43,370 nucleotides of DNA. It comes from an archaeon. Lineage in GTDB: Archaea; EX4484-52; B79-G9. The stretch's first letter is position 1; each line of letters begins with the position of its first letter. Positions 1-23,341 of the stretch are shown here, piece by piece. The stretch is taken from NCBI GenBank assembly GCA_043813875.1, contig JBDRKP010000080.1, forward strand, positions 1 to 43,370, in the 5' to 3' direction. The notes beneath the pieces are model-generated. The model was given only the letters and a program-made list of their open reading frames with translations, was not told the DNA's origin and searched no databases. The position numbers and the translations under genes were made by a program.

Positions 1-1139
1 CAACCCACAGGATCGCAGTGATAGAAGGAGACGGCATAGGCCCCGAAATAATCCGCGAAGGCATCAAAGTGATAGATAAAGTCTCCGAACTCCACAACTT
101 CAACATCAAATGGACAAGATACCCGAACGGCGCAGACCACTACTTAAAAACCAAAGAGCTCATAACCGAAGACACCTTAAAGACCATCAAATCAACATCA
201 GAAGCAATATACTTAGGCGCTCTAGGCGACCCGCGCATACAGCCCGGCATCCTCGAGAAAGGGATACTCTTGAAAACCAGATTCTACTTCGACCAGTTCG
301 TGAACCTGAGGCCCATAAAGCTCCTCGAAGGCGTCGACTGCCCCTTAAAAGACAAAGGCCCAAAAGACATAGACTTCACAGTCATCCGCGAGAACACAGA
401 AGACTTCTACGTCGGCATCGGCAACAGGGCAGGCATCGGAAAGACAAGGCAGGAACTGGAAGTAATCAGAAGCTTATACTCAGTAAAATTCGGCCTCGAC
501 ATAGAGACAGAAGGCTCAGAAATCGCATACCAGATCGGAGTATTGAGCCAGAAAGGCTCAGAGCGCGTCATCCGCTACGCATTCGAGAACGCAAAAAAGC
601 AGGGCCACACCCGCCTCACCGCAGTCGACAAGGCAAACGTATTGAGCCACGTCTACAACTACTGGCGCGAGATAGTAGAAAAAGTATCAAAAGAATACCC
701 AAAGATTGAGCACGAATTCAACTACGTCGACGCCATAACCATGTGGTTCGTAAAGACCCCGGAGCATTATCAGACTGTAGTCGCCCCGAACATGTTCGGC
801 GACATAATAACCGACCTCGGCGCCATGATACAAGGCGGATTGGGCCTCGCGCCCGGCGGAAACATAAACCCTGACGGCATCTCCATGTTCGAGCCCATCC
901 ACGGCTCAGCCCCGAAATACAAAGGCATGAACGTAGCGAACCCTCTAGCCACAATCTGGGCAGGCGCAATGATGCTGAACGAGATAGGCGAAGAAAAATC
1001 CGGCGAACTGATCGTAAAATCCATAGAAGAACTGGTAAAACAGAAAAAAGTCCTCACAAAAGACATGGGCGGCACCGCAAAAACAAGCGAAGTAGGGGAT
1101 GAAATAGTGAAGATAGTCACAAGATTAAACAACCAGTAA
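1..1139 (+). CDS. leuB: 3-isopropylmalate dehydrogenase (isocitrate/isopropylmalate dehydrogenase family), 5' end cut by the window edge
   Basis: Frame is open from the window start ([15 protein letters not shown]). RENTED, KAN and [27 protein letters not shown] motifs; directly upstream of the ilv genes. Substrate specificity is inferred from context. Confidence 0.8.
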
Positions 1140-1251
1140 CCAAAAGAAATATAACTCAATCAAAAAAAACAATCAATTCAACAAAACAGACAAGTGACCT
1201 AAAGCGAAGTCAACAATAGTGTGCTTGAGCGAAGCGAAACACACCTGATGC

Positions 1252-1294
1252 TCAAGCTTTCAGAAGCTTGTGATCAAGCTTTCAGAAGATTGTG
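1252..1294. repeat. Tandem duplication (22-bp period) of a palindromic unit TCAAGCTTTCAGAAG(C/A)TTGTG
   Basis: Copies at 1252-1272 and 1274-1294 differ at one base; copy 1 is a perfect CAAGCTT-TCAG-AAGCTTG hairpin. Confidence 0.85.
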
Positions 1295-1302
1295 TGATAA
1301 TC

Positions 1303-3018
1303 ATGAAAGGCTCAGAAATGATCTTAAAGACCTTGATGGACAACGGCATAAGCGAAAGCTTCGGCTACCCCGGCGGTCAGGTAATACCGCTCTTCGACGC
1401 CATCTACAACTCGGGCGGCAAATTCAAAAACATCCTCGTCCGTCACGAACAGGCCGCAGCCCACGCAGCAGACGCATACGCCAGAGTAAAAGGAACGCCT
1501 GGAGTGGCGATTGCAACATCGGGTCCAGGCGCCACCAACCTCATAACCGGCCTCGCGACAGCCCACCTCGACTCATCCCCCCTCATAGCGTTCGGCGGCC
1601 AGGTACCGATAGCGCTCCTCGGCAACGACGCATTCCAGGAATCAGACATGATGGGCATAACCCTCCCCATAACAAAACACAACTACCAGATAAGAGACCC
1701 GAACCAGATAGGCGTCACGATACTGAAATCAATAAAGATAGCGACATCCGGAAGGCCAGGCCCCATATACATAGAATTGCCAAAAGACACCCAGGTAGGC
1801 GTTGTCACAAAAGAGACACCAAAAACCATCCACATCCCCACATACAACCCGACAATGAACGGCCACCCGGAACAGATAAAAAAAGCAGCAAAACTCCTGC
1901 TGGACTCACAAAGGCCGGTAATAATAGCAGGCGGCGGAGTCATAATATCAAACGCATCACAGGATCTCGCCGAACTGGTAGAGACAACCCTGACACCAGT
2001 GACAACAACACTCATGGGCAAAGGCTCATTCCCTGAAAACCACCCGTTATGCCTCGGCATGCTTGGCATGCACGGCAGGAAAGTCGCCAATCACGCGATA
2101 ATCGAATCCGACCTAATAATATCCCTCGGCTGCAGGTTCTCAGACAGGATAACAGGCAGGAAAGACACATACACATGCGGCGCAAAAGTCATCCACATCG
2201 ACATCGACCCCGCAGAGATCGGGAAAAACATCCCCGTAGACATCCCGATAGTCGGCGACATAAGATGCGTCTTAAAAGACTTAAACATCGTCATCAAAAA
2301 ACTGACCAAAAAAAGAAAAGAAACAGAATGGTCAAAAAAAATGAAAGAATTAAACAAGCTCTGCAACTGCGACACAGACATAGACAGCTACCCGATAAAC
2401 CCGAAAAAAATCATGTTCGAACTCAACAAGGCGATCAAAGACACAGACATCATAACAACCGGCGTCGGCCAGCACCAGATGTTTGCAGCCCACTACATCA
2501 AAAGAAAATACCCCCGCACCTTCATCTCAAGCGGCGGCATGGGCACCATGGGCTTCGGCCTCCCCGCAGCCATCGGCGCAAAAACCGCAAAACCCAGCGC
2601 AGAAGTCTTCGACCTTGACGGCGACGGCTCATTCGCGATGAACATCCAGGAACTTGCGACCTTAAAAGAAGAGAACATAAAGGTCATCCCGGTCATATTC
2701 GAAAACAACTACCTCGGCATGGTCAGGCAATGGCTGGAGATATTCTTTGACAGAAGATACTCAAACGTAAACCTCGGCAAAAACACAGACTTCACAAAAA
2801 TCGCACAAGCCTACAACCTGAACGGGATCACGATAGAGCGCTCGGGAGATATAGCGCCCGCATTGAAGCAGGCCATAAAGAACCCGGAATCGACAATAAT
2901 AACAATAAAGATAGAACCAGAATCAAATATCCTCCCCATGCTCCCCCCGGGCGGCAGCATCACCGAAGCATTCGGCGGATGCATAACAAAACAAGGCCAT
3001 TATTTCGACAATATTTAA
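1303..3018 (+). CDS. ilvB: Acetolactate synthase large (catalytic) subunit
   Basis: FGYPGG, RHEQ, TSGPGATN and GDGSF..N ThDP motif. Start placed at ATG 1303 (MKGSE), after GTGAT, rather than at 1270. Confidence 0.95.
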   Translation: MKGSEMILKTLMDNGISESFGYPGGQVIPLFDAIYNSGGKFKNILVRHEQAAAHAADAYARVKGTPGVAIATSGPGATNLITGLATAHLDSSPLIAFGGQVPIALLGNDAFQESDMMGITLPITKHNYQIRDPNQIGVTILKSIKIATSGRPGPIYIELPKDTQVGVVTKETPKTIHIPTYNPTMNGHPEQIKKAAKLLLDSQRPVIIAGGGVIISNASQDLAELVETTLTPVTTTLMGKGSFPENHPLCLGMLGMHGRKVANHAIIESDLIISLGCRFSDRITGRKDTYTCGAKVIHIDIDPAEIGKNIPVDIPIVGDIRCVLKDLNIVIKKLTKKRKETEWSKKMKELNKLCNCDTDIDSYPINPKKIMFELNKAIKDTDIITTGVGQHQMFAAHYIKRKYPRTFISSGGMGTMGFGLPAAIGAKTAKPSAEVFDLDGDGSFAMNIQELATLKEENIKVIPVIFENNYLGMVRQWLEIFFDRRYSNVNLGKNTDFTKIAQAYNLNGITIERSGDIAPALKQAIKNPESTIITIKIEPESNILPMLPPGGSITEAFGGCITKQGHYFDNI

Positions 3019-3034
3019 GGAGGTAAAAAATCAC

Positions 3035-3511
3035 ATGCAGACCAACATCATCGCAATGCTCGTCCTAGACGAACCAGGCGTCCTCACAAAAATATCAGGC
3101 CTCTTCACCCGCCGCGGCTTCAACATAGACACAATCACCGTCGGAAAGACCGAACACAAAGGCATATCACGGATAACAATCAGCCTTCAGGCCAACGAAA
3201 AGACACTAGAGCAGCTCGAAAAGCAGCTCAACAAGATGATAGACATAATAAAAGTTATAAACATAACACACAACTCCATAGTACGCGAACTCTGCCTTGT
3301 GACCATAAACATAAAAGACGAAAACTCAAGACTGGAACTGATAAACTATACAAAGGTATTCCCCGCAAAGATAGTAGACATGAACCACAAGAGCCTGACA
3401 ATGGAATTCATGGACGACCCAAGAAAGATCGAGGAATTCTTAGAAAAGATACAGCCCTTCGGGATAAAAGAGCTCGTAAGGACCGGCATAACAGGCATAA
3501 CCAAAAATTAG
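3035..3511 (+). CDS. ilvN: Acetolactate synthase small (regulatory ACT) subunit
   Basis: DEPGVLTKISGLFTRRGFNIDT...KQLNK...ELVRTG; GGAGGT RBS upstream. Confidence 0.95.
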   Translation: MQTNIIAMLVLDEPGVLTKISGLFTRRGFNIDTITVGKTEHKGISRITISLQANEKTLEQLEKQLNKMIDIIKVINITHNSIVRELCLVTINIKDENSRLELINYTKVFPAKIVDMNHKSLTMEFMDDPRKIEEFLEKIQPFGIKELVRTGITGITKN

Positions 3512-3540
3512 CTGATAATAACAAATAAGAGGTGTAAGAT

Positions 3541-4542
<1,002 letters not shown>

Positions 4543-4568
4543 GCAACAGAGGCTCAAAAGATTTGGAC

Positions 4569-4770
4569 ATGCGCAAAAAATACGACATAACAGCAGGACT
4601 TTCCGGTGCCTTGGGCGCCCTTGCCGTGTGATACATCCCAAAAATACTGAACATAGACGGGCAATAGCCCAAAAATCCTGTTCGCAGGCATACGGATAGT
4701 AATCATAGTGACAGCCCATAGCTACCACATTATAAAAGCCATCTCTGAAAATAGAAGAAAACAGGCATAA
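4569..4770 (+). pseudogene. Degraded small two-helix membrane protein gene
   Basis: MRKKYDITAGLSGALGALAV*YIPKILNIDGQ*PK, then a +1 shift in an A5 run to ILFAGIRIVIIVTAHSYHIIKAISENRRKQA*. It fills the ilvC-DUF296 gap almost exactly. Confidence 0.45.
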
Positions 4771-4772
4771 CC

Positions 4773-5213
4773 ATGAGATACGAACAAGTGACATTAGGCA
4801 GAACATTCATCATGAAATTCGACCACGGCGACGACTTCCTAGAAGAACTAACAAAATTCATCAGACAAAAAAAGATACTTGCAGGCACAATCCAGTTCAT
4901 AGGCGCCCTGAAAAAGGCAGGAGTAGTAGTCGGCCCAGAAAAAGACGAGCTACCAGTAACCCCTATCTGGAAACAGTTAGAAAAACCGCACGAAATAGTC
5001 GGCATCGGCACGATATTCTGGGAAGAAGGCGAACCGAAAATCCACATACATTCAGGCACAGGCCACGACAAAGACGTCTTAGTGACCTGCATAAGAAAAG
5101 ACACAGAAGTCTTCATAGTCATAGAGGCCATAATCCAGGAATACAAGAACACAAGCGCAAGAAGGCAACCAGACAAACAGACCGGCATGAGCCTATTGAC
5201 ATTCGGCAACTGA
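4773..5213 (+). CDS. PPC domain (DUF296) protein
   Basis: GRTFIMKFDHGDD, IGAL, HEIVGIGTIF and HIH motifs; 146 aa. Confidence 0.85.
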   Translation: MRYEQVTLGRTFIMKFDHGDDFLEELTKFIRQKKILAGTIQFIGALKKAGVVVGPEKDELPVTPIWKQLEKPHEIVGIGTIFWEEGEPKIHIHSGTGHDKDVLVTCIRKDTEVFIVIEAIIQEYKNTSARRQPDKQTGMSLLTFGN

Positions 5214-5268
5214 TCTTTAAAAAATCCAGAAAGAATACACAACAATAAACATATCGGAAGTGATAAAA

Positions 5269-6888
5269 ATGCGCTCAGACACGATAAAAAAAGGCATCGA
5301 ACGCGCCCCCCACCGCGCCCTCCTCCGCGCAGACGGCCTGAAAGACGACGACTTCAAAAAACCCTTCATCGCAATAGCAAACTCCTACAACACCATAATC
5401 CCCGGCCACATCCACTTAAACGCCCTCACACAAGAAGTAAAAAGAGGAATAAAAGACGCAGGCGGCGTCCCATTCGAATACGGGGTGCCAGGAATCTGCG
5501 ACGGCATAATCATGGGCCATGGCGGCATGCGCTACTCCCTCGCATCGCGCGAGACAATCGCAGACTGCATCGAATTCATGACAGAATCCCACCAGTTCGA
5601 CGGCTGGGTCGGCGTGACCAACTGCGACAAGATCACCCCTGCGATGCTCATGGCAGCAGCAAGGATAGACATCCCGTCCATAATGCTCACAGGCGGCCCC
5701 ATGGACACAGGTGACCTTAAAGGAAAAGGCTGCGACCTAGTATCAGCATTCGAGGCAGTAGGCCAATATAGTGCAGGCAAATTGACAGAAGACGAACTGA
5801 AATCTATCGAAAAAAACTGCTGCCCAGGCGCAGGCTCATGCGCAGGCCTCTTCACAGCAAACACCATGTCATGCATGACAGAAGCCCTCGGCATGTCACT
5901 CACCGGCTGCGCGACAAGCCTTGCCATATCCGAAAAGAAGAAACAGCTTGCCTACAAGACAGGAAAACAAATAGTAGAGCTAATAAAAAAAGACATCAAG
6001 CCATCAGAAATCATGACAAAAGACGCATTCAAAAACGCGATAACAGTCGACATGGCGATAGGCGGCTCGACAAACTCAGCCCTCCACCTTCCATCAATCG
6101 CAAAAGAACTTGGCATAGACCTCACACTGGACACATTCGACCTCATCTCAAAAACAACCCCCAACATCTGCCACATAAGGCCTGGCGGCACGTACTTCAT
6201 GAAAGACTTCGAGAACGCAGGCGGCATACCCGCAGTCTTAAACAGGCTAAAAGACAGGCTAAAAGACTCAAAGACCGTGAACCTGAAATCAATAAAACAG
6301 ATCGCAGAAGAATCAAAAGTAATAGACCCAGAAATAATAAGGCCGCCAGGCAACCCCTACCACAAGGAAGGCGGGATAGCGGTCCTCAGAGGAAACATTG
6401 CAAAAAACGGCTCAGTCATAAAGCAGTCAGCAGTAAACGAAGACATGCTAATCCACACAGGCCCTGCAGTAGTATTCGAAGACGAAAACACTCTCATGAA
6501 AGCCATAATGGACAAAAAGATCAAAGAAGGCGACATAATAGTCATAAGATACCAAGGAAAGGCAGGCGCTCCCGGCATGCCGGAAATGCTCTCACCCACA
6601 TCCGCAATCATGGGTGCAGGCTATCATAAAGTCGCCCTCATAACCGACGGCAGATTCTCAGGCGGCACAAGAGGCCCATGCATCGGCCACATAGAGCCGG
6701 AAGCATACTTAGGCGGCGAAATCGCAGCAATAAAAGACGGCGACACAATAGAGATAGACATCCCGAACCGCACCTTGAACGTATTGCTCACAGACGATGA
6801 GATAAGACAGCGCATGAAAAAAGCAATTGCGCCAGAACGGGAACTGAAGCCGTTCCTCGCCAAATACCGCAATTCTGTAAGTGCTTGA
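5269..6888 (+). CDS. ilvD: Dihydroxy-acid dehydratase
   Basis: PGHIHL, CDG, NCDKITP, GGSTN, GMPEM, TDGRFSGGTRG motifs; ATG 5269 taken as start. Confidence 0.97.
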   Translation: MRSDTIKKGIERAPHRALLRADGLKDDDFKKPFIAIANSYNTIIPGHIHLNALTQEVKRGIKDAGGVPFEYGVPGICDGIIMGHGGMRYSLASRETIADCIEFMTESHQFDGWVGVTNCDKITPAMLMAAARIDIPSIMLTGGPMDTGDLKGKGCDLVSAFEAVGQYSAGKLTEDELKSIEKNCCPGAGSCAGLFTANTMSCMTEALGMSLTGCATSLAISEKKKQLAYKTGKQIVELIKKDIKPSEIMTKDAFKNAITVDMAIGGSTNSALHLPSIAKELGIDLTLDTFDLISKTTPNICHIRPGGTYFMKDFENAGGIPAVLNRLKDRLKDSKTVNLKSIKQIAEESKVIDPEIIRPPGNPYHKEGGIAVLRGNIAKNGSVIKQSAVNEDMLIHTGPAVVFEDENTLMKAIMDKKIKEGDIIVIRYQGKAGAPGMPEMLSPTSAIMGAGYHKVALITDGRFSGGTRGPCIGHIEPEAYLGGEIAAIKDGDTIEIDIPNRTLNVLLTDDEIRQRMKKAIAPERELKPFLAKYRNSVSA

Positions 6889-7596: not shown

Positions 7597-8106
7597 ATGC
7601 CAAACGCAGCAACCCACATATTGATACCAATCATACTCATAGACCTCGTGCGCGACTACATGCTGAAAGACAAGAAATCCATCACCACCAACCACCTCCT
7701 GATAGCAGGCATAGCAGGCATCCTTCCCGACATAGACGTTGCTTTGGGCCTTGTGATGACAGCGCTGAAAGGCTCATCGCCGATGATATTCCATCGCCTG
7801 ATAACACACTCAGCAATAATACCCCTGATTATATTTGCAATCGCCATGACAGCCCATCACCTGAAAAAAAAGGAAGCATACATGACAACCCTGATGATAG
7901 CAATCGGATACTCAATCCACTTGGCGCTCGACTTTCTTCTGATAGGATCCATAATGCCCTTATATCCATTCAGCACGCAGGAAATCGGTCTAAATATAAC
8001 AACAGGAGAGACAGCAGGCGTCCTCATGCTCGCCCTGGACACAGTGATCCTCCTTGCATGGCTCATCCACGAGCAGATGAAACACAGGATAATCGACTAC
8101 ATCTGA
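7597..8106 (+). CDS. Membrane-bound metal-dependent hydrolase (YdjM-like)
   Basis: N-terminal TH, LPDID, HR..THS and SIHLALD motifs; hydrophobic. Confidence 0.85.
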   Translation: MPNAATHILIPIILIDLVRDYMLKDKKSITTNHLLIAGIAGILPDIDVALGLVMTALKGSSPMIFHRLITHSAIIPLIIFAIAMTAHHLKKKEAYMTTLMIAIGYSIHLALDFLLIGSIMPLYPFSTQEIGLNITTGETAGVLMLALDTVILLAWLIHEQMKHRIIDYI

Positions 8107-9932
8107 GAACTCTTATCAAGCAGCAGATTGCACCCTTCCTCGAATGCCTCTATGCTTGCAAGAATAATATCCGGGCTGGTGCCCATGGCAATCACAGAAA
8201 TATCATTCTTCTCATCCCTGACAGTCATCTTCACATCGACTGCAGAATCTGAATGCCTGGTCTTGATATCTACAGCATAATCAGCAAGCGCGTAACTAAG
8301 CCCGTTATCTCTTAGCACCTTCTGGAACGCCTTTATCAACGCATCCACAGGCCCGACACCCTCACAGGACTCTTTATACACCTTACCCCCATACTCGAGC
8401 ACAATACATGCGACAGGCGGCTTATTTTTCTCAAGATTCAGGCTGAAATCAACGACTTTGAGCACCTTCTTTGCCCCCTTGCGGATGCTCTTCTCAACAA
8501 TCATCTGAAGATCCGCCCTCTTGATTCTCTTGCCCCTCCCAATAAACGACCTTATATACTCCCTGGCATTAGAGAGGTCTGTATTCGTGAGCTCGACATC
8601 AAACTCCTCCTCAACAATCTTTTTTATCTCCACATCCTTCGGGACACCGGAAATAAGAACCCTGCTATCATCCATGTAAGTATTACAAGACGCGATCTGA
8701 TAATACCTCTTATCAAGGAACCGGTCCACCTCAGAATCGACAGGATCGATCACAGGCGTCACAGGAAGCACCTTGAGCACCGACGATGGGTCCTTAAGTC
8801 CCGCCCCGGTCATGACAATGACAATCCTCTCATCAGCGCCAACCTTCTTCTCACGTACCATCTTATCCAGTGCAGCAAGTCCTGTAGCAGCCGAAGGCTC
8901 GACAAAGATAGATTCAGTCCTCGCAAGAAGCTTCTGGGCATTAAGGATCTCCTCATCAGTCACATCAAGCGCCATGCCGCCCGAATCATATATCGCCTTG
9001 AGTATCTTCTTCCCGTCCAGCGGGTCGCCGACGCATATCGCAGAAGCGACAGTATACGGCTTATCTATTATCTCATAATCATCCTTTCCCTCGTTATACG
9101 CCAAAACGACCGGATTCGCCCCGCTCGCCTGGACCCCGACCATCTGGGGAAGTTCATCAATAAATCCCAACCTCTTATACTCCAAAAACCCCTTCCATAT
9201 AGCAGAAGAATTAGTACCGCACCCTATCGGCACGATAACCTTGTCCGGCGCCCTCCAGTCCAGCTGCTCGACAATCTCATACGCCTCAGACTTCTGCCCT
9301 TCGGCCCTGAACGCATAATCCCCGCACAGGTAAAAATCATGCCTCTTGCTGAGATTGATCACGAGCCTCACAGCATCAGCATAAGTGCCCCTTATCTGTA
9401 TCAGTTTCGCGCCATAAGACAGAGTCTGCGCAAGCTTCCCTATAGGCGTCCCTTCAGGCACGATGACATAGCACGGCAACCCCGCCTTCGAGGCGAAAGC
9501 AGAAACAGATGCCGCCATATTGCCTGTCGATGCGCAGCACACCGCCTTCTTTCCCATCTCAAGCGCCTTCGTGATCTCGACCATCGTCCCCCTGTCCTTG
9601 AACGCTCCCGTAGGATTCGCACCCTCGTATTTCACATACACATGCTTCAGCCCGAGCATCTTAGCCACGCTCCGGCATTCATAAAGAGGCGTATTCCCCT
9701 CGTTCAGGGTCACGATCTTGCTCATATCCTCAATCGGATAGAAATTAAGATACTTAAGCGAACTGATCGGAGCAGTCTTGATAAGATGCTTATTCAGCTT
9801 CTTGAGAATCCTATCATAATCATAGACGACATCCAGTGCCCCGCCGCAATCCAGGCAATTAGAAGACGTCACCAATTCATCCCATTCTTTTCCGCAGTCG
9901 ATACACAAGAGCTTATAGATCTTTTTTTTCAT
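8097..9932 (-). CDS. thrC: Threonine synthase family PLP enzyme fused to a C-terminal LeuA/CimA-type regulatory domain
   Basis: N-terminal CxxC/CxxC; EGNTPL, NPTGAFKDRG, ASTGN, EPSAA and TGAGLKD motifs; then about 200 extra aa with EGVGPVDAL and GTSPDIILASIEAF. Confidence 0.85.
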   Translation of the reverse strand: MKKKIYKLLCIDCGKEWDELVTSSNCLDCGGALDVVYDYDRILKKLNKHLIKTAPISSLKYLNFYPIEDMSKIVTLNEGNTPLYECRSVAKMLGLKHVYVKYEGANPTGAFKDRGTMVEITKALEMGKKAVCCASTGNMAASVSAFASKAGLPCYVIVPEGTPIGKLAQTLSYGAKLIQIRGTYADAVRLVINLSKRHDFYLCGDYAFRAEGQKSEAYEIVEQLDWRAPDKVIVPIGCGTNSSAIWKGFLEYKRLGFIDELPQMVGVQASGANPVVLAYNEGKDDYEIIDKPYTVASAICVGDPLDGKKILKAIYDSGGMALDVTDEEILNAQKLLARTESIFVEPSAATGLAALDKMVREKKVGADERIVIVMTGAGLKDPSSVLKVLPVTPVIDPVDSEVDRFLDKRYYQIASCNTYMDDSRVLISGVPKDVEIKKIVEEEFDVELTNTDLSNAREYIRSFIGRGKRIKRADLQMIVEKSIRKGAKKVLKVVDFSLNLEKNKPPVACIVLEYGGKVYKESCEGVGPVDALIKAFQKVLRDNGLSYALADYAVDIKTRHSDSAVDVKMTVRDEKNDISVIAMGTSPDIILASIEAFEEGCNLLLDKSSQM

Positions 9933-9965: not shown

Positions 9966-10355
9966 TCAGTTCGCAATCATAGCGATCGCATCGATCTCTA
10001 TCTTCGCGTTCTTCGGAAGCTTCGCGACACACACAGTAGAACGCGCAGGCTTGCCTAAAGAGAAATAAGACGCATATATTTCATTCACTTTCGCGAAATC
10101 ATTGATATCCACAAGATATATCGTAGTCTTGACGACCTCCTCAAGCGCACTCCCCGCCGCCAGAAGTACAGCAGACAGATTATCAAGCACGCGCCTCGTC
10201 TGAGTCTCAATATCCCCATCGATGAACTGCTGCGTCTTCGGATCAATAGCAATCTGTCCAGACAGATACACCATACTACCCGTCTTCACAGCCTGCGAAT
10301 AAGGCCCGATAGCATTAGGCGCACCATCCGTATTTACAATATCTTTTGAAGTCAT
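9966..10355 (-). CDS. ridA: RidA/YjgF enamine-imine deaminase
   Basis: APNAIGPYSQA, SGQI, VVKTT, PARS and IEIDAIA motifs; start placed at MTSKD about 25 nt downstream of a TTTATAAA box. Confidence 0.93.
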   Translation of the reverse strand: MTSKDIVNTDGAPNAIGPYSQAVKTGSMVYLSGQIAIDPKTQQFIDGDIETQTRRVLDNLSAVLLAAGSALEEVVKTTIYLVDINDFAKVNEIYASYFSLGKPARSTVCVAKLPKNAKIEIDAIAMIAN

Positions 10356-10379
10356 AAAAACCATTAATAATGACACAGA

Positions 10380-10401: not shown

Positions 10402-10974
10402 CTAGCGCTCCGACAAAAATCTGAATATTACCGCAACACTCCTGTCCTCTTTCACTTCCTTATCAAGACACATCTTCCTGACCTCATCAAACGTCTTCCA
10501 TTCAGGATGGATGACCTCTCCGTCCTCTGGCTGAGAGCCGGATTTGCTCTCACAGAAATCATCAACGACAAAATAGAAGAGATCCCACACGACAGTAGCG
10601 CCGGATGCCGTAGTATGGATATGCTCAACCCTTTTTGCAATCAGGCCGGTCTCCTCAAGGCACTCTTTTTTAGCAGCATCACGCGCATATCCCATGACAT
10701 CAACGCCCGCATCAAGCGCCCTCTTGTATTCAGCGAGACTGTCAAACACCTTCCCGCCAGGCAGCCGAAAATCAAACCCACGAAGCTCGCTGCGATATTC
10801 CCTGACAAGAAGCATCTTACTCTCCTTCACGATAAGCAACCTGACACCAGGCGAGCGCCGCACAATCTCAAACTCCACCATCTTCCCGCCGACATTCATA
10901 GGTTGTCGGACAACCTCAAAAATCCTGCCCGAATATACTACTTTCTCATCCCCTGCTGGCTTTGGCGCATCCAT
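10402..10974 (-). CDS. NUDIX hydrolase
   Basis: LPGGK...AAKKECLEETG Nudix box with an insertion; start taken at MDAPK. Confidence 0.85.
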   Translation of the reverse strand: MDAPKPAGDEKVVYSGRIFEVVRQPMNVGGKMVEFEIVRRSPGVRLLIVKESKMLLVREYRSELRGFDFRLPGGKVFDSLAEYKRALDAGVDVMGYARDAAKKECLEETGLIAKRVEHIHTTASGATVVWDLFYFVVDDFCESKSGSQPEDGEVIHPEWKTFDEVRKMCLDKEVKEDRSVAVIFRFLSER

Positions 10975-11105
10975 AAAAAAACCTCGAACAGATTTCAATA
11001 ATCAAAAACAAAAACTACCGCACATAATCTTAGAGAACAACATTTTAAATTCTAACGAATAAACACAACATCAGAGCTAAAAAAAAGGAAGATACAGATA
11101 TACAA

Positions 11106-11579: not shown

Positions 11580-12494
11580 ATGGCAGACATAAGATCAGAC
11601 AAGATATGGCTTAACGGGAAACTGATAGACTGGGACAAGGCAAACATCCACATCATGACCCACGCCCTCCACTACGGATCATCCGTGTTTGAAGGCGTAA
11701 GATGCTACGAGACAAAGAGAGGCTCCGCGGTATTCCGCTTAAAAGAGCACACAAGGCGCCTCTTCGACTCAGCAAAGATTTACCGCATGAAAATCCCCTA
11801 CACAGAAGACGACATAAACAGCGCCATAAAAGAGACAATAAAGGCGAACAACCTGAAATCATGCTACATCCGCCCGATAATATACAAAAGCACAGGCGGC
11901 ATAGGCCTGAACCCGCTGGGAATAAAGACAGACGCAGCGATAGCAGTCTGGTCATGGGGCGCATACTTAGGCGCTGACGCCCTCGAAAACGGCATAGACG
12001 TCAAAGTGTCCACATGGACGAGGATTGCCGCAAACACCCACCCCGGCCTTTCAAAAGCAGGCGGCAACTACATGAACTCCCAGCTGGCCAAGATGGAAGC
12101 GATAGAAGACGGCTACGCAGAAGCCATATTGCTGAACACTGCCGGCTTCGTAGCAGAAGGCTCAGGAGAGAACATATTCCTCATAAGAGACAATACAATA
12201 CACACGCCAAAAATAAGCGACGGGATACTTCCCGGCATCACAAGAGACTCCATAATAAAAATCGCAGCCGAACTGGGCTACACAGTAAAAGAGACAACAA
12301 TCCCGCGCGAGATGCTCTACATCGCAGACGAGCTGTTCTTCACAGGAACAGCAGCAGAGATGACGCCCATAAGGTCCGTAGACAAGATAACTATCGGTAA
12401 CGGCAAGCGCGGCCCGGTAACAGGAAAGATACAGAAAAGATTCTTCCAAACCTTGAAAGACGGCAAAAGGACAGAATGGTTCGACTTCGTATAG
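11580..12494 (+). CDS. ilvE: Branched-chain amino acid aminotransferase
   Basis: [36 protein letters not shown] and GTAAE motifs. Confidence 0.97.
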
Positions 12495-17793: not shown

Positions 17794-19320
17794 ATGAGCA
17801 TACTTATGAAAATTCCACAAAAAAAAGATGATGAATCCCTTAGTCAGTACTCGGGGAACTTAGCTAGACTCTTTAATAGCTTAAACTCCAAAAACTCGAA
17901 GAAAAATAAAGGTCAATTCTTCACATCAGTAGAAATAGCCCGATACATGGCAAGTTTAGTAACCGCAAAAAAAAGTAAAATATCCGTCCTCGATCCAGGA
18001 GCCGGCATAGGAATATTATCTTTTGCAGTGATTGAGCAATTAGTCGAAAATAATAGAAATTTAGAAGAATTAAGTCTTATATTATATGAGAATGATGTCG
18101 AAGTCATTCCTTACCTTAAAAAAGCATTAGAAATAGCCAAAGATGAGTTAAAAAATAGAAAAATCAAATTTGTCTATGAAATAATAGAAAAAGATTTTAT
18201 TTCTTCAAATTCGAATGCCCTCAATAATAATTTATCTGAATATTGTGAATCCAAAAAGAATTCTTTCGACATAATTATCTCCAATCCCCCTTACTTTAAA
18301 TTAAATAAAAAGGACGTAAATGCTAAATTCAGGGATATTATATCAGGTCAACCAAATATCTATTTTTTATTCATGGCAATCTCTGCAAAACTGCTTAATG
18401 CTAACGGGGAAATGATATATATCACGCCTCGAAGCTTCTGTTCGGGATTATATTATAGTAAATTCCGAAGTTGGTTGATCGATAAAGTTAGTTTTACCCA
18501 CATCCATTTATTTGAATCCCGAAAAGATCTGTTTTCTTCTGAAAATGTTCTGCAAGAGAACATAATAACTAAGTTCACCAGAGTAAAACAAGATACAATA
18601 ACCATATCCAAAACAACAGATGGCAATTTATCTAATATTCAATCGATTCAGGTCATGAAAAAAGACGTAATATACAAAAGTAACGGGCACATCTTTTTTA
18701 GAATTCCTTCAGATGACAACGAATTAAACGTAATTAAAACCTTGGACAAGTTGCCATATAATTTCTATAAGTTAGGGATAAAGATATCTACCGGGAAAGT
18801 CGTTGCATTTAGAAATAAAGAATATTTAGATAACAATGTCGGTGAGAATTCAGTACCATTAATATGGATGCATAATATCAAGAATGGAAAAATTCAATGG
18901 CCAATAAATAAAAAAAATAAACCTCTTGCAATAAAGAAAAATGCGACTACAAAAAAATTGTTATTAGAAGCAAAAAATTACATTGTTCTCAAAAGGTTCA
19001 CAACAAAAGAACAAAAGAAAAGATTTGATATCGCTCTTATTTACCAGAAAGACTTTGAAAAATATAAGTATTTTGCCTTGGATAATATGGTTAACTACAT
19101 TCATAATCCCGGTCAGCCGCTCAATAAAAACCAGATTAAAGGGATTGCTAAATATTTAAATATGCCAATCGTAGAATTATATTTTAGAATACTAAACGGT
19201 CATACACAAGTGAACGCTAATGAGGTCTATGCATTACCATTTCCATCTTTAGCCGAATTAGAGCTATTCGGCAGTAGCATAAATTGCACGAATAATATTC
19301 CAGTTTTGATGAACCAATGA
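17794..19320 (+). CDS. Type II N6-adenine DNA methyltransferase (BsuBI/PstI, Eco57I-like)
   Basis: GQFFT, LDPGAGIG (motif I), ISNPPY (motif IV), ITPRSFCSG, STGKVVAFR and NGHTQVNA motifs. Confidence 0.92.
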   Translation: MSILMKIPQKKDDESLSQYSGNLARLFNSLNSKNSKKNKGQFFTSVEIARYMASLVTAKKSKISVLDPGAGIGILSFAVIEQLVENNRNLEELSLILYENDVEVIPYLKKALEIAKDELKNRKIKFVYEIIEKDFISSNSNALNNNLSEYCESKKNSFDIIISNPPYFKLNKKDVNAKFRDIISGQPNIYFLFMAISAKLLNANGEMIYITPRSFCSGLYYSKFRSWLIDKVSFTHIHLFESRKDLFSSENVLQENIITKFTRVKQDTITISKTTDGNLSNIQSIQVMKKDVIYKSNGHIFFRIPSDDNELNVIKTLDKLPYNFYKLGIKISTGKVVAFRNKEYLDNNVGENSVPLIWMHNIKNGKIQWPINKKNKPLAIKKNATTKKLLLEAKNYIVLKRFTTKEQKKRFDIALIYQKDFEKYKYFALDNMVNYIHNPGQPLNKNQIKGIAKYLNMPIVELYFRILNGHTQVNANEVYALPFPSLAELELFGSSINCTNNIPVLMNQ

Positions 19321-19351
19321 AAATAAAGGAAAATCCACCTAAGGTTTTAAA

Positions 19352-20284
19352 ATGAATAAAATATCAGAAGCATTAGATTTGTTAAAGCAATTGAATGTCC
19401 CAAAAAAGCAACAAAATGAGAGATCTGCTTTAGCTTTGTTAGCTTTACTTTCTCTAAAAGAAAATGACTCGTGGACGAGTGCTAAAAAGACATTAATCAG
19501 AGTCCACGACATGATGATATTTATCAAAGAAGAATATAATCGTGAATATGCAGAAAATAGCAGAGAAACTTTCAGAAGGCAAACGCTCCATCAATTCGAG
19601 AAAGAGGTAGGTATTGTTGAAAGAAACGCAGACGAACCAACAAGACCGACCAACAGTCCCAATACTACATGGTCAGTTACAGACGATACCTTGAGAATCG
19701 CCAAAAGTTATGGCACACAACGATGGAACACCAAACTGCCGAAATTTCTCAAGAAGATCAAAAGAACAATTATAAGCTATAAAGTAAAAAGAAGTAAAAA
19801 TAAGCTTTCAATTTCCTTAGATGATTCAGAAATTGTGTTCTCACCGGGAAAGCACAATGAACTTCAAATCGATATTTTGAACGATTTTAGAAAAAACTTT
19901 TGCCAAAATGCAGAGGTTTTATACGTGGGTGACACAGCCCACAAAATGCTATACTTGAATGAGCCTCTACTGAAAGAAATCAATCTTGAAATTAAAAAGC
20001 ATGATATTTTGCCAGATATTGTTCTTTTGGACAGACAAAAAGACAGACTATATCTGATTGAGGCTGTTTCATCTCATGGTCCAGTATCAAATAAAAGGTT
20101 AATAGAACTAAACAAATATTTCTCAAAATTAGAATACACGAAAATTTTTGTAAGTGCATTTCCAAGCATTACTGAATTTAAAAGACATGTTGATGACATC
20201 GCATGGGAAACAGAAGTATGGATTTCAGAAATACCCAATCATATGATCCATTTTAATGGTGATAAATTCCTCCGAATGAACTGA
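19352..20284 (+). CDS. BsuBI/PstI family type II restriction endonuclease
   Basis: QQNERSAL, YAENSRETFRRQTLHQF, PTNSP, SPGKHN, YVGDT, PD...IEAVSSHGP, IAWETEVW and HMIHFNG motifs. Confidence 0.93.
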   Translation: MNKISEALDLLKQLNVPKKQQNERSALALLALLSLKENDSWTSAKKTLIRVHDMMIFIKEEYNREYAENSRETFRRQTLHQFEKEVGIVERNADEPTRPTNSPNTTWSVTDDTLRIAKSYGTQRWNTKLPKFLKKIKRTIISYKVKRSKNKLSISLDDSEIVFSPGKHNELQIDILNDFRKNFCQNAEVLYVGDTAHKMLYLNEPLLKEINLEIKKHDILPDIVLLDRQKDRLYLIEAVSSHGPVSNKRLIELNKYFSKLEYTKIFVSAFPSITEFKRHVDDIAWETEVWISEIPNHMIHFNGDKFLRMN

Positions 20285-20594: not shown

Positions 20595-20656
20595 CGAATA
20601 TTTCACAAAATTTAATAAATAATCGGCACTATTATCACCGATAACGGCGATTGTTA

Positions 20657-23341
20657 ATGAAATTCAAAGAAATAGAACAAAAATGGCAAAAACGCTGGCA
20701 GAAAGACAAGATCTTCAAAGTGACCGAAGACAAGAGCAAGAAAAAATACTACTGCCTTGAGATGTTCCCCTACCCTTCAGGCAAGCTCCACATGGGCCAT
20801 GTCCGGAACTACTCAATCGGCGACTGCCTCGCAAGATACCGCCGCATGCAGGGCTGCAACGTCCTCTACCCCATGGGCTACGACTCACTCGGCCTCCCCG
20901 CAGAGAACGCAGCGATTAAAAACAACAGCCATCCAAAGACCTGGACCGAAAGATGCATCGGCATGATGCGCGAGCAGCAGGACATGATGGGCTTCTCATA
21001 CGACTGGGACAGGGAAGTCGACACCTACAGGCCCGAATACTACCGCTGGAACCAGTGGATATTCCTAAGGCTCATGGAAAAAGGCCTCGTCTACAAAAAA
21101 GAGGCCCCGATAAACTGGTGCGAAAAATGCGCCACAGTCCTCGCAAACGAGCAGGTAGAGGAAGGCAAATGCTGGCGCTGCCACAGCACAGTCACAGAAA
21201 AAAACCTGGAACAATGGTTCTTCAAAATAACCGCCTACGCAGACGAGCTCCTCGACGACCTAAAGAAACTCGAAGGCTGGCCTGAGCGCGTAAAAGTCAT
21301 GCAGAAGAACTGGATCGGAAAATCAGAAGGAACAGAGATCGAATTCAAAATAGACAAAAAAGACCTCACCATCTCCACATTCACCACAAGACCGGACACA
21401 GTATACGGCATAACATACCTCGTCCTCGCCCCTGAGCACCCCCTGATAGAAAAGCTCACCAAAGGCACAGCACACGAAAAGAAAGTACAGGACTTCATAA
21501 AAAAAGTAAAAAAAATGACAACAATAGACCGCACCGACGAGACAAAAGAAAAGAACGGCATATTCACAGGCAGCCACTTCATCAACCCCGCAAACGGTGA
21601 CAAATGCCCCATCTACATCGCAGACTACGCCCTGATGAGCTACGGCACAGGCGCAGTCATGGCCGTCCCCGCTCACGACCAGCGCGACTTCGAATTCGCA
21701 AAAAAATACAAGCTCCCCATAAAAATAGTCATAGAAAAAAAGAACAGCCCGCTAGACCCCAACACCATGAAAAAAGCATACACAGAACCCGGCATCATGA
21801 TCAACTCAGACAAGTTCAACAATATCGACAACGAGCAGGCAAAAGAAAAGATAACACAGCACCTCATAAAGATGGGTGCAGGCAAAAGAACAACCAACTA
21901 CAAGCTAAGAGACTGGCTCCTCTCAAGGCAGAGATACTGGGGCACCCCGATACCCATAATCAACTGCAAGAAATGCGGCGCAGTCCCCGTAAAAGAGTCC
22001 GACCTCCCGATCCTTCTCCCCGAAAACGCGAAATTCACAGGCATTGGAAACCCCTTGGACAGCGTCAAAGAATTCACAGAAACAAAATGCCCGAAATGCG
22101 GCGGCCCCGCGAAAAGAGAGACAGACACCATGGACACCTTCGTCGACTCCTCATGGTACTTCTTTCGCTACACATCGCCAAAAGAGACCACATCCCCGTT
22201 CGACAAAGACGCCGCAAGATACTGGATGCCCGTCGACCAGTACATCGGCGGCATAGAGCACGCCATCCTCCACCTCCTCTACGCAAGATTCTTCACAAAA
22301 GCCCTAAGAGATATCGGCCTGACAGACGCAGACGAGCCCTTCACCCGCCTCCTCGCCCAGGGCATGGTATTGAAAGACGGCGCAAAGATGTCAAAATCAC
22401 TCGGCAACGTAGTAGACCCCGGCGAGATAATAGACAGATACGGCGCAGACACCGCCCGGCTATTCATCCTCTTTGCCGCCCTCCCCGAAAAAGAACTCGA
22501 CTGGGATGACTTGGGCGCAAAAGCCGCCTACAGGTTCCTGAATAAGATATACAGGCTGACAGAATCAAACAAAAAGAACTACACAAAAGGCGACATCGAC
22601 ACGACAGGCCTAGACAACAACACAAAGCACCTCCTCTCAAAGACAGAAAAAGCCATAAAAGAAGTCACAGAAGACATCGAGAACTTCCGCTTAAGCTTCG
22701 CCATAGCAAAGATAATGGCGCTCACAAACGAGATCAGCAAGTACACAGAAAAAACCGAAAATCCGACAAGAATGCAAAAAATCGTACTCTCAAAAGCACT
22801 GGACACCCTCCTCCTCATCATGAGCCCCATCACCCCGCACTTAGCAGAAGAGAACTGGGAAAACCTCGGCAACAAGCCATACCTCTCAGTCCACCCATGG
22901 CCGAAACACGACGAATCCCACATAGACAAAGAGGCAGACCTTGCCGAAGACCTATTGAAATCGATACTCACAGACATAAAAGAGATCCAAAAGATCGTGA
23001 ACAAGACCCCGAAAAAGATAAACATCTACCTAAGCCCATCATACAAATACAAGATCTATCAAATTGCCCTAAGCAAGCCAAAGAACCTGGTAGCAGAGAT
23101 CATGAAAGACCAGGACATAAGAAAAGCAGGAAACGACGCAGTAAAATACGCAACAGCATTGAGCAAGCGCCCCGACCTGAAACCAGTAATGGAAGAATCA
23201 AAAGAAAAAAAGATAATCATCGAAGCAACAGACTTCTTCAAAAAAGAGCTAGACTGCGACATAGAGATAATAGAAAAAGAGACCGGAAGCGAGAAATCAA
23301 AGCGCTCAGAACCCCAGAAACCCGGCATCGAAATCTTGTGA
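20657..23341 (+). CDS. leuS: Leucine--tRNA ligase (bacterial-type core, archaeal-type C-terminal domain)
   Basis: [61 protein letters not shown] and KMSKS motifs. Confidence 0.97.

Follow-up and report, generated by a model that had tools for sequence, protein, structure and literature searches.

A threonine synthase-like enzyme joined to a LeuA-type allosteric module in an archaeal genome: a candidate for 2-oxobutanoate formation in isoleucine synthesis

The gene located at positions 8097..9932 (minus strand) of contig JBDRKP010000080.1 (GenBank assembly GCA_043813875.1, from an archaeon) encodes a fusion protein, in which a pyridoxal 5′-phosphate (PLP) domain derived from threonine synthase (ThrC) is followed by the allosteric module known from isopropylmalate synthase (LeuA) and citramalate synthase (CimA). 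The contig was analysed as a stretch of 43,370 nucleotides, hereafter the window. The fusion proteins form a single-origin family of enzymes of about 610 aa with a genuine, widely distributed and so far unstudied architecture. Their catalytic half has probably ceased to be a threonine synthase, and we consider it slightly better than an even proposition that the fusion is an allosterically regulated, 2-oxobutanoate-forming functional analogue of the threonine deaminase IlvA. This function is proposed from gene context and co-occurrence, and the reaction, substrate, effector and sign of regulation are inferred. A sequence-only reading of the window had described a threonine synthase-like enzyme under direct feedback by branched-chain amino acids; its regulatory part stood, in that an allosteric module of the LeuA/CimA type is present and such control is plausible, whereas the threonine-synthase catalysis was not supported.

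The gene is organised as follows, all features being on the minus strand and residues being those of the encoded protein:

8097..9932 (−), whole gene, one uninterrupted open reading frame (ORF) of 611 aa plus stop, comprising the Zn-ribbon, ThrC-derived PLP domain, linker, LeuA subdomain II and LeuA_dimer
9822..9920 (−), N-terminal four-cysteine zinc-ribbon-like segment, residues 5–37, with C10, C13, C26 and C29
8805..9713 (−), fold-type II PLP domain of threonine-synthase ancestry, residues 74–376
8628..8786 (−), family-specific linker, residues 383–435, belonging to a junction profile that matches only the fusion family
8526..8627 (−), LeuA accessory subdomain II-like helices, residues 436–469, from the alignment to LeuA hidden Markov models (HMMs) and AlphaFold2 helices 433–444 and 450–465
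8121..8525 (−), LeuA_dimer allosteric domain, residues 470–604, with invariant GVGPVD (525–530) and SPDI (586–589)

The HMM scan with Pfam found both domains in one chain, as had been proposed: PALP at residues 74–376 (E 3.4e-73, 247 bits) and LeuA_dimer (PF08502) at residues 470–604 (E 2.7e-24, 86 bits against a gathering cutoff of 24.9, model positions 2–130 of 131). PF00682, the DRE-TIM or HMGL-like domain, was not matched anywhere in the fusion protein. The end of the ThrC-type part, placed near position 8790 by the sequence-only reading with the ORF going on beyond it, corresponds to residue 381 within the TGAGLKDP motif (residues 375–382) and was thus correctly located. The same is true of the regulatory domain assigned to 8465–8097, which spans residue 490 to the stop codon and agrees with the PF08502 match, while the assignment of 8655–8470 (residues 426–488) to LeuA subdomain II held for about residues 436–469, as judged from the LeuA HMM positions, and found no support for residues 426–435. 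The four cysteines of the N-terminal segment were invariant in the alignment of 24 fusion sequences; the match of this segment to Zn_ribbon_8 was weak (Pfam, E 0.14), and AlphaFold2 placed strands at residues 6–10 and 32–37. The AlphaFold2 model of the fusion (mean predicted local distance difference test (pLDDT) 82.6, predicted TM-score (pTM) 0.71) had a low-confidence hinge at residues 377–386 (pLDDT <50), followed by helices at 399–414 in a helical region extending over residues 399–484.

A survey of species representatives (one genome per species, 185,579 species) revealed 469 stretches encoding a relative, and the counts of loci given here use the best 80 of these 469, in which the combination of PALP with LeuA_dimer was found to be conserved. 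There were at least 120 homologues of about 606–671 aa with 48–80% identity, both Pfam domains being present in all matches listed. The best 80 loci came from DPANN archaea, Methylomirabilota (NC10), Peregrinibacteria and other Patescibacteria, and a few others; the closest relatives among them, with 74–83% identity, were titled Aenigmatarchaeota or Nanohalarchaeota. In the ESM Atlas, clusters combining both domains had 509, 240 and 61 members, with Balneolota as the commonest phylum in the largest. The junction segment (residues about 377–478) was intact in 79 of the 80 related loci, which came from independent assemblies, the remaining one (L014) being cut by a contig end. A profile made from the junction only had 40 matches among 1.84 billion protein representatives, 16 of them full length (601–633 aa) with the junction starting at residue 367–394, and the rest fragments. 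Since the junction is intact in these loci and the full-length matches of its profile are all family members, an assembly chimera is ruled out. In a tree of the PLP core (44 rows, none omitted; midpoint rooting only), the fusion proteins formed a single clade (Shimodaira–Hasegawa-like approximate likelihood ratio test (SH-aLRT) 99), which grouped with short-type ThrC, apart from long-type ThrC. In G034, a genome of the same genus as the window with 8% contamination, the fusion was split over two contig ends (contigs C55, C178 and C162 being involved); a third open frame of 379 aa matched alignment positions 8–394 only (272 bits) and may be a catalytic-only copy or contamination.

The best solved matches of the PLP domain were the ThrC structures 2zsj, 6cgq, 2d1f and 1uim. 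A Foldseek search of the whole chain against the PDB likewise placed ThrC structures at the top (TM-score normalised to target 0.82–0.85) and returned only PLP-domain relatives, CapA2 (9k3c) being another structural neighbour. The models for IlvA were below cutoff (TIGR01127, 105.4 bits against 378.75; TIGR01124, 62.7 against 411.3), and the cysteate synthase model gave 96.6 bits. Along the alignment to Thermus thermophilus ThrC (1uim), in which K61, T88, N154, S155, R160 and N188 correspond to K112, M139, G204, D205, R209 and C238 of the fusion, the substrate pocket was mapped to the following positions:

9597..9599 (−), K112, the PLP-binding lysine, aligning to K61 of T. thermophilus ThrC in the NPTGxFKDRG motif, invariant in 24 of 24 fusion proteins
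9516..9518 (−), M139, in place of the Thr of the pan-ThrC GNT motif (T88 in T. thermophilus), Met in 24 of 24 fusions and Thr in 17 of 17 ThrCs
9306..9323 (−), G204-D205-Y206-A-F-R209, in place of ThrC N-S-x-N-P-x-R (N154, S155, R160)
9210..9224 (−), G237-C-G-T-N241 loop, in place of ThrC G-N-A-G-N (N188 aligning to C238)

The 17 canonical ThrCs (6 short type, 11 long type) were drawn from fusion-bearing genomes and included that of the window genome; two NC10 paralogues, L105 and L106, differ from both groups and were kept out of this set, and L107 was without a usable ORF. Residues G204, D205 and R209 were found in all 24 fusion proteins, and the corresponding N, S and R in all 17 ThrCs. Position 238, Asn in every canonical ThrC, was Cys in 19 of the 24 fusions, the remaining five having Asn, Val or Ala; the fusions were invariant at G239, T240 and N241. 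Four of the five pan-ThrC pocket positions are therefore replaced, T/N/S/R/N of the ThrCs having become M/G/D/R (24/24) and mostly C. If these residues hold the substrate phosphate, the Asp at the former Ser155 position would repel it. The paralogues L105 (in G025) and L106 (in G026) represent a third ThrC-like protein of NC10, 432–438 aa in length, sister to the fusion clade (SH-aLRT 93), with a pocket pattern of GNLANS, N-N, Y-Y instead of R, and AAGGS instead of GNAGN.

In the window, the fusion gene has the following neighbours:

9966..10376 (−), RidA of the enamine/imine deaminase family (PF01042, 148 bits), 33 nt upstream of the fusion and a probable operon partner
10402..10998 (−), NUDIX hydrolase (PF00293), 25 nt upstream of RidA, possibly co-transcribed
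3..6888 (+), leuB, ilvB, ilvN, ilvC, a PCC-domain gene and ilvD (Pfam), a branched-chain cluster left of the fusion
11580..12494 (+), ilvE, a class IV aminotransferase (PF01063), right of the fusion

The 80 loci were probed by tblastn with proteins of the window genome (E≤1e-8). RidA lay directly upstream of the fusion on the same strand, at a distance of 14–211 bp, in 12 loci, and IlvE directly downstream on the same strand (8–217 bp) in 23; IlvD, IlvB and IlvC were encoded within 8 kb of the fusion in 23, 19 and 19 loci, respectively, and at least one of the probed ilv/RidA neighbours was present in 36. Elsewhere among the probed loci, no NUDIX gene was detected close to the fusion. This ilv/RidA arrangement recurs in genomes of DPANN and of the candidate phyla radiation (CPR), and RidA and the fusion form an isolated pair on the closed 1.37-Mb chromosome of G020. 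An association of the fusion with genes for homoserine dehydrogenase or homoserine kinase was not observed, the fusion sitting with RidA and ilv genes; in NC10 genomes it is a short canonical ThrC, not the fusion, that hom adjoins, and no pathway clue was found in the NC10 neighbourhoods of the fusion.

Gene content was compared among 31 fusion-bearing genomes (G000–G030) chosen from the loci, with counts that are descriptive only because kin are not independent. None of the 31 had an IlvA over cutoff or the IlvA regulatory domain PF00585, which is absent also from the fusion protein, while ketol-acid reductoisomerase (KARI) was present in 30 and RidA in all 31. Another ThrC over cutoff was found in 21 genomes and a homoserine dehydrogenase domain in 19, the other 12 being without Homoserine_dh. 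LeuA_dimer proteins besides the fusion numbered none in 7 genomes, one in 21 and two in 3; HMGL-like synthases were lacking in 8 and single in 11, and 7 of the 8 lacking genomes have KARI, the closed G020 included. Two overlapping sets of genomes can be drawn from these counts: 1) G008, G010, G011, G012, G013, G019 and G020 have KARI, RidA and the fusion, without IlvA or a LeuA/CimA-type synthase, and 2) G006, G008, G011, G012, G013, G018 and G020 have neither homoserine dehydrogenase nor another ThrC. Enzymes of the Cys/Met gamma-lyase type were found in none of the five genomes tested. Of the 42 genomes of the window's phylum, again counted descriptively, 11 have KARI, and 6 of these carry the fusion, which was absent from all 31 that lack KARI; no IlvA over cutoff was detected in the 42, and of six matches at E≤1e-30 five were the fusion genes themselves.

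In the C-terminal part, full-length LeuA HMMs aligned to residues 437/442–608 (model positions 335/344–505), starting about 30 residues upstream of the Pfam domain; across scans of the whole protein and of its C-terminal half, the start varied between residues 437 and 447 (model positions 334–350). In Neisseria meningitidis isopropylmalate synthase (IPMS), E353, D375 and E385 are labelled as subdomain II, and positions of about 340–390 make up the accessory subdomain II (PMC9860122). Since the LeuA HMM positions fall in this subdomain, the appended piece corresponds to subdomain II plus the regulatory domain, and the transplantation of such a piece makes branched-chain amino-acid control of the fusion plausible on sequence grounds. 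The AlphaFold2 model contained helices at residues 433–484 followed by two beta-beta-beta-alpha units, the first with strands 491–499, 507–514 and 517–524 and helix 528–542, the second with strands 547–557, 564–573 and 578–586 and helix 589–610. Among solved structures, the C-terminal half had a single sequence match, the regulatory domain of Leptospira citramalate synthase that binds Ile (3f6g/3f6h, 38.6 bits); LeuA models outscored CimA models over this half (68 against 40 bits).

Structure prediction of the dimer, which the sequence-only reading had envisaged, paired the C-terminal module (residues 436–611) with a second copy of itself at a score of 0.53 against 0.00 for the best control; as LeuA/CimA regulatory dimers have already been solved, this indicates likeness, not binding. 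In the benchmark, 20 of 30 proteins with solved paired structures attained a score of 0.53, as did 1 of 23 with solved single-chain structures. Agreement between runs was at least 92% of contacts, the pLDDT of the partner was at least 76, and the interface of the ligand-free model ran through residues 525–530 and 586–591, so that the module is predicted to dimerise through its invariant motifs. Isoleucine would be the most logical effector, with leucine also possible.

A standalone LeuA_dimer protein of 137–138 aa (86 bits) is encoded directly upstream of a canonical long-type ThrC in two fusion-bearing Patescibacteria (L109:4598–5011 (−) in G016 and L110:4189–4599 (−) in G009). These thr loci continue with a protein of 206–229 aa (AAA_33 in one case) and then a 297-aa PALP protein, and the standalone protein may be a trans-acting regulatory subunit in the thr operon.

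The window genome contains five PALP genes, namely the fusion, two cysteine-synthase-like genes, trpB and a long-type ThrC. The last of these is the canonical ThrC (460 aa; 249 bits to TIGR00260); its neighbour is a "proposed homoserine kinase" of the ApgM type (TIGR02535, 520 bits), and a homoserine dehydrogenase domain is present as well. The canonical ThrC and the ApgM-like kinase genes are convergent with an overlap of about 30 nt (G000, contig C54; L113:3271–4494 (+) and L113:4463–5845 (−)). The genome also encodes a LeuA cut by a contig end and a CimA-like synthase (L112:7568–9154 (−), contig C40) with 385 bits to the Leptospira CimA model, below cutoff. The latter gene adjoins one for a 1014-aa class-I tRNA synthetase (L112:3908–6952 (−)) with an archaeal C-terminus (DUF5915) of the isoleucyl-tRNA synthetase (IleRS) type, and the pairing of CimA-like and IleRS-like genes is suggestive of isoleucine supply.

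Taken together, a scheme can be proposed in which a short-type ThrC PLP domain with an N-terminal Zn-ribbon has been rebuilt at the substrate pocket, and the family-specific linker connects it to the allosteric unit known from isopropylmalate/citramalate synthase. The enzyme would be a homodimer joined through both its PLP domains and its LeuA-type regulatory domains, and its remodelled pocket would take a substrate without phosphate. In the simplest case this would be L-threonine, which PLP-dependent elimination and deamination would convert to 2-aminocrotonate/2-iminobutanoate; the co-encoded RidA would turn this into 2-oxobutanoate, and IlvB/N, IlvC, IlvD and IlvE would carry it on to isoleucine. 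The enzyme would thus be a non-orthologous counterpart of IlvA, in which the LeuA-type module stands in for the ACT-like domains. A branched-chain amino acid bound at the regulatory dimer interface would restrict the PLP domain via subdomain II, by analogy with IPMS (PMC9860122). On the broader proposal, this would be a third, unrecognised entry enzyme of isoleucine synthesis, a threonine deaminase that arose from ThrC by pocket remodelling and capture of the LeuA/CimA module and that supplies 2-oxobutanoate where annotated IlvA and citramalate synthase are lacking (many Patescibacteria/CPR, DPANN, Methylomirabilota and apparently Balneolota); we regard this as evenly poised between true and false.

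Several points weigh against the fusion being an IlvA analogue. TIGR00260 (threonine synthase) matched the N-terminal 390 residues with 274.1 bits (cutoff 167.1), and NF006050 (threonine synthase) was passed narrowly, with 304.7 bits against 303; among the matches listed, the names given by the sources were always "threonine synthase". R209, the equivalent of R160, is kept, and the role of T88, N154, S155, R160 and N188 as holders of the phosphate of O-phosphohomoserine, reportedly found by Omi 2003 and Murakawa 2011, is an assumption here. In 44 of the 80 loci, mostly from Methylomirabilota, none of the probed ilv/RidA neighbours was found. Besides their kinship, the 31 genomes are mostly metagenome-assembled genomes (MAGs), with completeness known only for G000 (91.5%), and six large ones have catalytic-only Ser/Thr-dehydratase-like matches (E≤1e-40). 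In G003, G005 and G017, homoserine dehydrogenase was found but no other ThrC over cutoff; either the fusion might be needed for threonine synthesis in these genomes, or the MAGs are incomplete. The GVGPVDA motif of the fusion is of the LeuA type, as in the LeuA of the window genome, and fits leucine at least as well as isoleucine; the CimA-type motif differs (GDGGYDA in Leptospira CimA, GDGGFDA in the CimA-like protein of the window genome). Because of this CimA-like synthase, a pyruvate route to 2-oxobutanoate is probably also present in the window genome, and the argument that the fusion is the only candidate is weaker for this organism.

The two threonine synthase models would fit a true threonine synthase that converts O-phosphohomoserine to threonine under branched-chain amino-acid feedback. 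So would the best solved relatives, all of them ThrC, the retention of the PLP lysine and R209, and the position of the fusion as the sole ThrC homologue over cutoff in 10 of the 31 genomes, 3 of which have homoserine dehydrogenase; the standalone LeuA_dimer beside canonical ThrC in G009 and G016 hints that this domain can associate with real threonine synthases. We nevertheless consider such an enzyme unlikely, since four of the five pan-ThrC pocket positions are replaced, one of them by Asp, 21 of the 31 genomes already have a canonical ThrC, which in the window genome adjoins the proposed homoserine kinase, and seven genomes have no homoserine dehydrogenase (nor other ThrC) to supply the substrate. 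The RidA and ilvE/D/B/C neighbours also speak against it. As no IlvA occurs in the 31 genomes, threonine would not be the isoleucine precursor in them, and branched-chain control of a ThrC and its position among ilv and RidA genes would then be without obvious logic. The description as a threonine synthase under branched-chain feedback was thus probably wrong about the catalytic half, and an IlvA analogue built from ThrC and LeuA parts is the better-supported reading.

Less likely still is the direct conversion of O-phosphohomoserine to 2-oxobutanoate by gamma-elimination and then deamination, bypassing threonine, in which the weakened phosphate site would let the phosphate leave and no water would be added at C-beta. 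Its product and operon logic equal those of threonine deamination, R209 is kept, and the window genome has a homoserine dehydrogenase domain and the proposed homoserine kinase. Murakawa 2011 reportedly holds that the retained phosphate steers ThrC towards threonine and that 2-oxobutanoate forms without it. ThrC also turns vinylglycine into 2-oxobutanoate (PMC5501846). However, the seven fusion genomes that lack both homoserine dehydrogenase and another ThrC, closed G020 included, have for this reason no visible source of O-phosphohomoserine, and an Asp in the former Ser155 position would be expected to impair the binding of phosphate esters. The least likely of the three is another fold-type II PLP reaction on a non-phosphorylated amino acid (serine deamination, beta-replacement or racemisation), tied to branched-chain metabolism only via its regulator: the pocket is unlike those of both ThrC and IlvA, ThrC relatives with different chemistries exist (the cysteate synthase model with 96.6 bits; CapA2, 9k3c) and the NC10 loci give no pathway context, but the recurrent order RidA-fusion-ilvE-ilvD-ilvB-ilvC would be left unexplained, as would the source of 2-oxobutanoate where KARI is present and IlvA, LeuA/CimA-type synthase and gamma-lyase are absent.

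No paper describing a ThrC-LeuA module architecture was found in a literature search that was largely without subscription journals and without supplements, in agreement with the earlier view that it is not known to be characterised; a Geobacter genome paper and the GapMind paper do not mention the fusion. Compared with known enzymes, the PLP domain of the fusion is 37–44% identical to short-type ThrC (Aquifex 2zsj, Bacillus subtilis 6cgq, Mycobacterium tuberculosis 2d1f, T. thermophilus 1uim), with which it has in common the PLP lysine and the NPTGxFKDRG, EGQK and TGxGLKD motifs; it differs in the 230-aa C-terminal extension, the changed pocket and the ilv/RidA rather than hom/thrB context. 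With IlvA (EC 4.3.1.19) the fusion shares the fold-type II PLP domain and a C-terminal amino-acid-sensing module, and, in genomes where IlvA is absent, it lies beside RidA as the opening gene of an ilv operon would be expected to; unlike IlvA, it is without the ACT-like Thr_dehydrat_C domain, its catalytic domain coming from ThrC and its regulatory module from LeuA/CimA. As in LeuA and CimA, it carries subdomain II and LeuA_dimer with conserved GxGxxD and SPD motifs at the predicted dimer interface, although here they are carried by a PLP enzyme rather than by a DRE-TIM (HMGL-like) barrel, and subdomain I is missing.

Plant threonine synthase senses S-adenosylmethionine via an N-terminal extension and the dimer interface, and is not known to have a separate ligand-binding domain. 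The Arabidopsis enzyme (1e5x/2c2b) is a structural neighbour of the fusion, whereas its pocket residues are those of normal ThrC. The plant enzyme is an allosterically controlled, S-adenosylmethionine-activated member of the ThrC family (PMC9081730, PMC13381585). A precedent for the proposed chemistry is the "moonlighting" ThrC of Microcystis aeruginosa (PMC12172450), which makes 2-oxobutanoate from threonine; its activity is sigmoidal, isoleucine and alanine act as inhibitors, and its lineage is reported only in cyanobacteria. The same paper states that the ThrCs of T. thermophilus and B. subtilis deaminate threonine in vitro. Identity of the fusion with the Microcystis protein was rejected, since the latter, at about 433 aa, lacks a LeuA module: LeuA is nowhere mentioned in that paper, and the C-terminal segment it describes is short (E419–L433). 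A weak promiscuous threonine-dehydratase activity of B. subtilis ThrC is reported in a preprint (bioRxiv 10.64898/2026.09.15.751699), which also cites ilvA revertants in which derepression of hom-thrCB puts this activity to use.

Both halves of the fusion are textbook domains, and it is their combination that is uncharacterised. The allosteric module (subdomain II and LeuA_dimer) has moved between unrelated folds, from a TIM-barrel acyltransferase to a PLP enzyme, which bears on the transplanting of allostery. If the proposed function is true, it would 1) close a pathway gap in reduced-genome bacteria and archaea that lack both IlvA and CimA although their ilvBCDE set is complete, 2) correct a systematic mis-annotation as "threonine synthase", by which reconstructions overlook a route to isoleucine and attribute threonine synthesis to some genomes in error, and 3) offer a natural instance in which four or five changes in the pocket made a deaminase out of a synthase. 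Since Balneolota, the commonest phylum in the largest cluster, include cultured species, the proposal is directly testable.

Three further features were seen in the window. An Eco57I-type N6 DNA methylase and a BsuBI/PstI-type restriction endonuclease at 17794–20284 have a GC content of 0.30–0.34 against about 0.45 elsewhere, and this segment is probably an acquired restriction-modification island. The leucyl-tRNA synthetase encoded at 20651–23341 has a PF13603 editing domain, which is typical of the bacterial enzyme; related genomes being labelled DPANN archaea, the gene may be a horizontal acquisition. The coding strands in the window are unusually A-rich, with AT skew strongly positive (about 0.3–0.5) over most plus-strand coding stretches and near zero at the minus-strand genes (8–10 kb and 14–17 kb).

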